A stretch of 1,950 nucleotides of DNA from Escherichia coli (GTDB lineage: Bacteria; Pseudomonadota; Gammaproteobacteria; Enterobacterales; Enterobacteriaceae), in the NCBI RefSeq assembly GCF_003334385.1, contig NZ_QOWN01000106.1. The stretch is one strand, 5' to 3'. Positions 1,123 to 1,950 of this stretch are shown in pieces. Position 1 is the first letter of the stretch; every line of letters begins with the position of its first letter. Both the position numbers and the translations under genes were made by a program. The notes under the pieces were generated by a model. The model ran no database searches. It saw only the letters and a list, made by a program, of their open reading frames with translations, and was not told the origin of the DNA.

Positions 1123-1950
1123 AATCCTAAGGACGTAAATATTGGGGGCGAGTACATCGTAAAATTTTACAATGATGGGGAAGGTGCCGAGATAGTAAAA
1201 GCAAAAGGAAAAAAAGAGGTTTTATTAGGTGCTATTAATACAACAACAGGAAGCATCATGACCTTTAATGAAAAGGAGGCTGCTAAAAGTAAAACGCAGG
1301 ATGATTTTAATTCTATTGTGTATCCTGTCTACTTACCTGAGTTAAAGCTGGAAAATATAAAATCCCTAAATGTCGATGATATAAAGAAAATACAAGAAAT
1401 AAAAAAGAATGTGTCTGAGGTTGTTACATCTGCCAACTCAGCTGAGTATTTATCTGCTATAAGAAGTGGCGGTAATACTGAGGCTTACTTAGCAATTAAC
1501 AAAACATCTCCAGCTTTATCAAAAGAGTACTCTCGCATTTCTGGGAATATCGAACAGCTGAATAAAGACACCACTTTTGCAATTGACGCTGACGGCAACA
1601 TTACTCTGGATGAGACAGTCGGTACAGGTGAGCGCTATGGTGTGAAGGATGTTGTGGCTGATCTTGTTGCTGACACGACTGTGTATGCCGAAGAAGATGG
1701 TTCACTGACGATGGATAACAGTGCTCCAGCAAGAAAGCGTGTTAATGAAGCACTGGTTGACCTGGACAAATCTGTTCGTGAGCGTACCACTGTTGGTGTG
1801 AGTTCTGACGGCACCCTGACCCGTGCAGAAGGTGCAAAGAACACCATTTCTGTTAACGATGGTCTGGTGGCCCTGTCTGGTCGTACTGACCGTATTGATG
1901 CAGCAGTTGGTGCCATTGATGGCCGTGTCACCCGTAACACGCAATCCATT
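1042..1950 (+). CDS. 5' part (303 codons, 3' end outside the window) of a secreted trimeric autotransporter adhesin, Eib-like (prophage-borne immunoglobulin-binding / YadA-family surface protein)
   Basis: Frame 1 is open from ATG 1042 to the window end with no stop; all 303 codons were checked by hand. TAA at 1021-1023 closes the frame upstream, so 1042 is the first start. The N-terminus is MSKKFTKTILSSAVAGLLLVSGGVVAANPKD. The C-terminal part, ...TTVGVSSDGTLTRAEGAKNTISVNDGLVALSGRTDRIDAAVGAIDGRVTRNTQSI, shows heptad periodicity and a VxxNTxxI asparagine-at-d motif typical of TAA stalks. The gene sits directly downstream of a phage tail-fibre-region gene, which is the context described for E. 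coli eib genes (from memory). I cannot tell which eib paralogue it is. Confidence 0.92.
   Translation, partial: MSKKFTKTILSSAVAGLLLVSGGVVAANPKDVNIGGEYIVKFYNDGEGAEIVKAKGKKEVLLGAINTTTGSIMTFNEKEAAKSKTQDDFNSIVYPVYLPELKLENIKSLNVDDIKKIQEIKKNVSEVVTSANSAEYLSAIRSGGNTEAYLAINKTSPALSKEYSRISGNIEQLNKDTTFAIDADGNITLDETVGTGERYGVKDVVADLVADTTVYAEEDGSLTMDNSAPARKRVNEALVDLDKSVRERTTVGVSSDGTLTRAEGAKNTISVNDGLVALSGRTDRIDAAVGAIDGRVTRNTQSI

Follow-up and report, generated by a model that had tools for sequence, protein, structure and literature searches.

A distinct N-terminal domain class at the tip of a putative EibA-like trimeric autotransporter adhesin of Escherichia coli

In Escherichia coli, both commensal and Shiga-toxin-producing, Eib adhesins make cells resistant to serum, let them aggregate and give rise to chain-like adherence. 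Members of this E. coli immunoglobulin-binding (Eib) family have been described with an N-terminal 'Eib region' or N-terminal domain (NTD), of which no structure has been solved (PMC7568254, PMC12511318). In AlphaFold trimers, the NTD of EibA, EibD and EibG was a 'novel fold' consisting of two helices on an antiparallel sheet and a hairpin, with limited resemblance to periplakin's plectin repeats; deletion of the EibG NTD lowered adhesion only slightly, while removal of the whole head abolished chain formation (PMC12511318). EibA carries the NTD only and no beta-roll (PMC7568254, PMC12511318). Heads of trimeric autotransporter adhesins (TAAs) mediate homotypic aggregation, cells producing EibA and EibD exclude each other, and a 'greenbeard' role has been proposed (PMC7568254). 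Here, the N-terminal part of an adhesin gene on a 1,950-bp E. coli contig (NZ_QOWN01000106.1; this whole stretch is referred to as the window) was analysed. An earlier note on this DNA had flagged nucleotides (nt) 1123-1620 as a passenger region of unassigned type. By analogy with described systems, the flagged region probably forms the tip of a prophage-encoded, antibody-binding fibre of the Eib family, and the tip clearly belongs, on sequence comparison, to a class of its own that is not near-identical to the named Eib tips with which it was compared.

Adhesin architecture and prophage context

The adhesin open reading frame starts at the ATG at nt 1042 and runs to the window end, covering 303 codons that are open throughout, with no stop before the contig end. 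The closest complete-genome match of the window is E. coli strain SCU-104 (98.6% identity). The full-length SCU-104 allele carries on as a coiled coil and closes with a C-terminal YadA-type anchor (YadA_anchor, PF03895, residues 361-419, E 1.5e-16), while the window contig stops at residue 303. Because the SCU-104 allele runs on to this anchor, the gene was taken to encode a trimeric autotransporter of which the 3′ end lies off the contig. Residues 1-26 show a basic n-region, a hydrophobic core and a VVA/A junction and resemble a Sec signal peptide, as judged by reading of the sequence. The leader is near-invariant in the family and was 67% identical to that of an EibE-like protein (BLASTP). 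The first two features of the protein are as follows.

nt 1042..1119, plus strand: putative signal peptide, residues 1-26, MSKKFTKTILSSAVAGLLLVSGGVVA
nt 1120..1569, plus strand: 'W-type' N-terminal tip domain, residues 27-176, as delimited with an AlphaFold2 model; no Pfam, NCBIfam or PDB sequence match

Three Eib proteins served as comparators: an EibA-like protein of JNEC-KY204 (L009, 388 amino acids [aa]), standing in for EibA of E. coli ECOR-9, an EibE-like protein (L002, 488 aa) and EibG of JNEC-KY208 (L010, 508 aa). All were recovered from complete genomes via published primers, and the comparison with named Eib proteins excludes EibF and EibH. The eibA/eibC cloning primer yielded only EibC/E-like genes (488-504 aa); EibA-type genes were obtained via the eibA-F PCR primer.

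From N to C terminus, the window protein consists of a putative signal peptide, one globular N-terminal domain, three saddle-like connectors and a coiled coil, with the YadA-type anchor beyond the window. This architecture is EibA-like, with a tip domain only and no beta-roll head or neck. YadA_head (PF05658, SVAIG-type) and neck were unmatched in the window protein (E <= 10) and in the full-length allele (E <= 0.01). As a positive control for the head search, EibG was included and matched YadA_head with E 7.1e-10. The earlier statement that the passenger holds no recognisable TAA head, stalk or neck was borne out.

The EibA-like protein shares the leader, the single globular NTD, the lack of beta-roll and neck, the saddle, the coiled coil and the YadA anchor, and its saddle and stalk are identical to the window protein over residues 251-303. 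It differs in its NTD, which could not be aligned with the W-type NTD and in whose model the three extra C-terminal helices of the W-type model have no counterpart. It also differs in its connector and in its alanine-rich coiled coil, which stand in place of the three saddle-like units arranged in tandem in the W-type protein. EibD, EibC, EibE and EibG (2xqh comprises EibD residues 160-418) have the saddle and membrane-proximal stalk in common with the window protein, identity of this part being 70-71% to EibG and the EibE-like protein. They carry a canonical NTD followed by a YadA-like beta-roll and neck, whereas the window protein has neither beta-roll nor neck and an NTD of another sequence class.

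In SCU-104, the locus order is tail fibre, DUF4376-domain protein and a 419-aa 'YadA C-terminal domain-containing protein', inside a prophage that bears an N4-gp56-type capsid gene. As in the Eib family, the gene is thus prophage-borne and lies downstream of tail-fibre genes. The same order of tail fibre, DUF4376 and eib-type gene recurs at the EibE-like, EibA-like and EibG loci, so the EibA-like gene also shares the prophage context.

Sequence class and predicted fold of the tip

The term 'W-type' was coined here for the sequence class of this NTD. Pfam gave nothing above threshold for residues 28-193, including YadA_head, stalk and neck, and NCBIfam held no family for the tip domain. Matches to DcpS_C, DUF2540, FliC, KAP_NTPase, SMC and RNase HIII in Pfam and NCBIfam fell under the curated cut-offs and were rejected as compositional noise. 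In a PDB sequence search, residues 28-200 were unmatched, the sole match covering residues 215-303. The tip matched phrog_9547 of PHROGs v4 (profile positions 31-191, E 3.5e-31) and the full-length allele matched it end to end (E 6.4e-195); the W-type protein thus corresponds to the whole profile, but the function of this family is not annotated, so membership says nothing on function. GC content was 0.31-0.37 over nt 1126-1500 and 0.49-0.53 over nt 1576-1950, in agreement with the earlier description of the tip as compositionally foreign; compared with the stalk, the tip is AT-rich.

Two parts of the earlier note required adjustment. Its passenger region holds up to nt 1569; nt 1570-1620 (residues 177-193) are the start of the stalk (TTFAIDADGNITLDE). 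Because residue 177 onward belongs to the first of three tandem stalk units, the tip proper was set at nt 1120-1569. The tip is unassigned in that it has no Pfam or NCBIfam family and no solved structure, yet it occupies the already described slot of the Eib NTD and is therefore no orphan. Neither a known head nor near-identity to an Eib NTD was found against the EibA-like protein, the EibE-like protein or EibG. In BLASTP with these proteins, the leader and the saddle and stalk aligned and the tip did not, and hhalign of the tip with canonical NTDs gave probabilities of 3-16%, for which reason the idea of an unassigned tip survives.

A monomeric AlphaFold2 model of the tip was built from 26 sequences, with a predicted local distance difference test (pLDDT) score of 86.3 and a predicted template-modelling (pTM) score of 0.76. 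In the model, five antiparallel strands (residues 32-75) are followed by two short helices, a sixth strand (residues 93-97) and helices at residues 111-127, 133-141, 146-155 and 157-176. This order fits the earlier expectation that the first ~50 residues are beta-like and the following part helical. The parts of the domain are as follows.

nt 1135..1266, plus strand: five-stranded antiparallel beta-sheet subdomain, residues 32-75 (strands E6-8, E12-17, E22-27, E34-40 and E45-49, mature numbering), rated the most variable part, with 15 segment types among 26 sequences
nt 1267..1317, plus strand: insertion loop of short helices that varies in length, residues 76-92, with the most segment types (20 among 26 sequences)
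nt 1318..1422, plus strand: sixth strand (VYPVY) and helix B, residues 93-127, from the AlphaFold2 model
nt 1438..1569, plus strand: three C-terminal helices, residues 133-176 (H107-115, H120-129 and H131-150), the last leading into the stalk

As modelled, the tip is a compact, self-contained alpha/beta unit in which a five-stranded sheet is backed by helices and each chain has its own fold. A Foldseek search with the model against PDB and BFVD returned nothing at E <= 0.001. Heads of the YadA, UspA and Hia type and SadA-type connectors occupy the same distal position, but the W-type tip is predicted to fold per chain and not as an interleaved beta-roll or prism.

Several features liken the W-type tip to the canonical Eib NTD: both stand directly after the leader, are modelled with helices on an antiparallel sheet, are without a solved homologue and show weak similarity to plectin repeats of periplakin. 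A model of the EibA-type NTD, built only up to the NVGLD motif, showed the same order of five strands followed by two helices; this comparison was one of element order. In the W-type tip, by contrast, strands 5 and 6 are separated by an insertion that varies, and three C-terminal helices are extra. At the sequence level, what hhalign aligned with canonical NTDs was either the short motif IDxxGN(I/V)T or a co-linear stretch without significance. The stretch NSIVYPVYLPELK of the tip paired with NSIAYTVHEPVLK of EibG in BLASTP (E 0.4), and in hhalign with the equivalent canonical strand (P 0.015); although suggestive, this pairing lacks significance. The register first chosen by eye, GSIMTFNEKE of the W-type tip against TFTVYDKEVHDF of EibA, was a secondary, non-significant hhalign alignment (P 0.028), and neither register was relied on.

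The W-type domain might alternatively be unrelated by descent to the canonical NTD, that is, a cassette with its own fold swapped between the leader and the first stalk unit. Consistent with this are the lack of a significant match in profile-profile comparison, the three C-terminal helices that have no counterpart in the EibA-type model, the very low GC content of the tip and the occurrence of one and the same stalk unit behind NTDs of both classes; moreover, a profile search matched the canonical-NTD protein P0075 via the shared stalk motif only, and beta-roll heads were absent from the proteins that it listed. On the other hand, position and element order are the same, weak co-linear matches recur (the pairing described above, and YIVKFYNDG against YRIYYNKSSG) and weak periplakin similarity is common to both classes (PMC12511318 for the canonical one). 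Separate descent is therefore regarded as possible but doubtful, and a very remote kinship of the W-type tip with the canonical Eib NTD as likely, though unproven.

Tip variation, stalk and proposed role

Twenty-six distinct tips were cut into five segments and each segment was clustered at 75% identity, resulting in 15, 20, 11, 4 and 1 types from tip to base and in 25 combinations among the 26 sequences. Mean pairwise identity climbed from 0.29-0.34 in the distal segments (0.34 in the strand subdomain) to 0.89 at the base, and individual pairs of distal segments were down to 4-6% identical. Relative to the SCU-104 allele, which is the closest complete one, the window was 97-100% identical outside nt 1126-1350; within this interval, identity was 93%, 85% and 66% in successive 75-nt bins, the last (nt 1276-1350) containing a 33-column indel. 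The first stalk unit follows a canonical-type NTD in P0075 and P0077. As the leader is near-invariant and unit 1 follows either NTD class, tips appear to be exchanged whole or piecewise between conserved flanks. Few positions are invariant in the family (G44, N50, Y110, G117, E136, R139, I140 and I144, mature numbering). Together, these comparisons suggest that the W-type tip is a mosaic of which the variability rises toward the exposed end. Such allelic mosaicism is not reported for Eib proteins in the cited papers (PMC12511318; PMC7568254).

The stalk starts with units of ~36 residues that open with TT(F/V)x..DG..T. Units 1 and 2 are related (local alignment score 37, with shuffled sequences averaging 19; p 0.0025), as are units 2 and 3 (p 0.0005, shuffle test). 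Residues 215-303 matched positions 180-267 of the EibD crystal chain 2xqh_A (E 2.8e-24); the stalk is thus homologous to a trimeric crystal structure and, as in Eib proteins, an EibD-type saddle is followed by a coiled-coil stalk.

nt 1570..1674, plus strand: saddle-like unit 1, residues 177-211, TTFAIDADGNITLDE..., kin to unit 2 and near-invariant in the family
nt 1675..1785, plus strand: saddle-like unit 2, residues 212-248, TTVYAEEDGSLTMD..., kin to unit 3
nt 1786..1896, plus strand: unit 3, the EibD-type saddle, residues 249-285, matching 2xqh_A
nt 1897..1950, plus strand: start of the membrane-proximal coiled coil, truncated where the contig ends, with D286-A287 (nt 1897-1902) opposite EibG D391-A392 in the alignment

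A similar extra unit (STIGLDKNGKLTEDEKNIVTPLRINDGVVTV) was observed in longer EibA-type alleles. Given this unit and the three present here, saddle copy number seems variable among Eib stalks.

The aspartate that serves immunoglobulin G (IgG)-Fc binding in Eib proteins is present: D286 (nt 1897-1899), which lies outside the flagged region, aligned with EibG D391 in BLASTP. As a side observation, when the EibD part of the 2xzr fusion construct is taken to start at residue 391, counting back on the alignment gives D387-Y388. The EibD residues are printed as D378-Y388 in PMC13534694 but are aligned there with the adjacent EibG residues D391 and A392, and 'D378' may be a transposition. Substitution D391A abolishes IgG-Fc binding by EibG, which places the site in the stalk (PMC13534694).

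A different proposal is that the tip is a new ligand-binding module and makes the fibre specific for a new host receptor or matrix component. Ligand binding is frequent among TAA tips, as in YadA, Hia and BadA, and the W-type tip is without assignable family or structural match yet compact and confidently folded. However, no conserved surface patch is apparent, invariant positions being few and distal segments hypervariable, a pattern more in keeping with variation or recognition than with a fixed binding site; the effects of EibG NTD deletion were mild (PMC12511318); and the mapped Eib ligand site is in the stalk (PMC13534694). As the aspartate of this immunoglobulin site aligns with D286, the claim of the earlier note that new binding specificity would sit in the tip is left without support. 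A new ligand-binding module is accordingly judged quite improbable, and a conserved ligand pocket in the tip is improbable as well. The more likely function is self-association in an allele-specific manner, or antigenic variation.

The account that we prefer is as follows. By homology to trimeric EibD, three tip copies would crown the fibre as its most exposed surface, where they probably act in allele-specific cell-cell association or adhesion and double as an antigenic surface that varies. The conserved stalk would provide immunoglobulin binding and serum resistance, and the core of the tip would be related, at great divergence, to the canonical Eib NTD. The following points weigh against this account. 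Homology of the tip to the canonical NTD falls short of significance (hhalign probabilities of 3-16%, P 0.015 for the best co-linear match, BLASTP E 0.4); core-only hhalign and BLASTP disagree with the register first chosen by eye; the models are of monomers, so the trimeric packing of the cap stays outside them; and the self-association role is extrapolated by analogy from EibA, EibD and EibG to the W-type. Taken as a whole, an EibA-like Eib fibre cap with a recognition or antigenic role, immunoglobulin binding by the stalk and a diverged NTD is considered the probable explanation. That the W-type is instead a separate, non-homologous cassette with an unseen fold, of which segment shuffling sets 'greenbeard' sorting or host-ligand specificity, is rather unlikely.

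Upstream region, distribution and typing of eib-type genes

Two features precede the adhesin gene.

nt 1..234, plus strand: 3′ end of a DUF4376-domain gene, which follows the prophage tail-fibre gene and matches the SCU-104 annotation (L001, CDS 7641-8234)
nt 235..1041, no strand assigned: AT-rich intergenic region 5′ of the adhesin gene, 97-100% identical to SCU-104

Within this intergenic region, two related units of ~120 nt were observed on the minus strand (362-480 and 530-657). Each opens with TACGAAAATTCTGTAT on that strand, which is the reverse complement of an exact 16-nt direct repeat (462-477 and 639-654), and both close with a GC-rich hairpin followed by a U-run (388-371 and 559-538); at 259-242 there is another hairpin, the third, with a T-run. 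Terminator-like sites numbered 5, against 0.9 expected, and fold z-scores of the two units were -3.1 and -1.5. No Rfam family matched anywhere in the window. By their appearance, the two units may be paralogous elements akin to small RNAs, or else terminators on the minus strand. A sigma-70-like site was found at 996-1024; such sites were not more frequent here than expected by chance.

The published eibF forward primer mapped to the upstream DUF4376 gene in many genomes and not to an eib gene, and the complement of the reverse primer resembled, by eye, the DUF4376 stop and terminator region (window 222-245). The primer pair may thus be non-specific for eib coding sequence.

A word-indexed search yielded 77 relatives, all from E. 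coli or Shigella, with 39-100% identity and mostly partial proteins at contig ends. In a profile search of 1.84 billion cluster representatives, just 33 proteins were found, which marks the class as rare, and all clusters with a named source were from E. coli. Full-length matches measured 319-427 aa and are thus too short for a beta-roll head. The longer ones, P0098 and P0102, were two repeat proteins with 8 and 25 repeated stretches, respectively, matching the TTFAIDADGNITL end of the profile; both resembled giant adhesins bearing the stalk motif, but P0098 was rejected as a relative, being a cadherin and Big_9 repeat protein with a DxDG-type motif match only. EibF (459 aa) would lack the W-type domain, given that no W-type-bearing protein exceeded 427 aa. 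Relatives with ~32% identity occur in the sequenced phages GER2, PhiR12 and PhiR5. Tip DNA detectable by blastn was present in 13 of 5,426 complete E. coli genomes, the matches covering different sub-segments.

P0086, at L011 6001-7074 (GCA_902838015.1), is a divergent member of the W-type adhesins, and its leader is different (MKSVMTKNILAAAVAG...). It adjoins genes of the integrative and conjugative element type (TrbI, DUF3438, DUF2895, DUF3487 and Plasmid_RAQPRD) and insertion sequence elements, and not a prophage tail-fibre context.

Database relatives of both NTD classes were nearly all partial proteins on contigs of 0.5-3 kb. Short-read assemblies seem to break routinely inside eib-type genes, the probable cause being repetition of the eib stalk and anchor sequence, which occurs at up to 8 places per genome. 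These observations bear on whether the region is no functional domain but a gene fragment, decaying or chimeric, or else an artefact of assembly at the end of a short contig. The window contig does end inside the gene, and most database relatives are likewise partial and from contig ends; such partial proteins are, however, explained by assembly breaks in the repeated stalk, the reading frame is open, fold confidence is high, and complete genomes and phages contain alleles that are intact and full-length (SCU-104, 419 aa; P0079, 415 aa, on 47 contigs; GER2, 354 aa). A fragment or artefact is hence extremely improbable.

The tip is the only part of Eib proteins without an experimental structure or assigned function, and the comparison suggests that it comes in at least two mutually unalignable sequence classes. 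Surveys of draft genomes will under-count and mis-type eib-type genes, and PCR or BLAST typing built on the named eib genes will miss W-type alleles. Natural alleles that differ in defined segments provide a handle on the role of the tip in co-aggregation, adhesion and antibody recognition.
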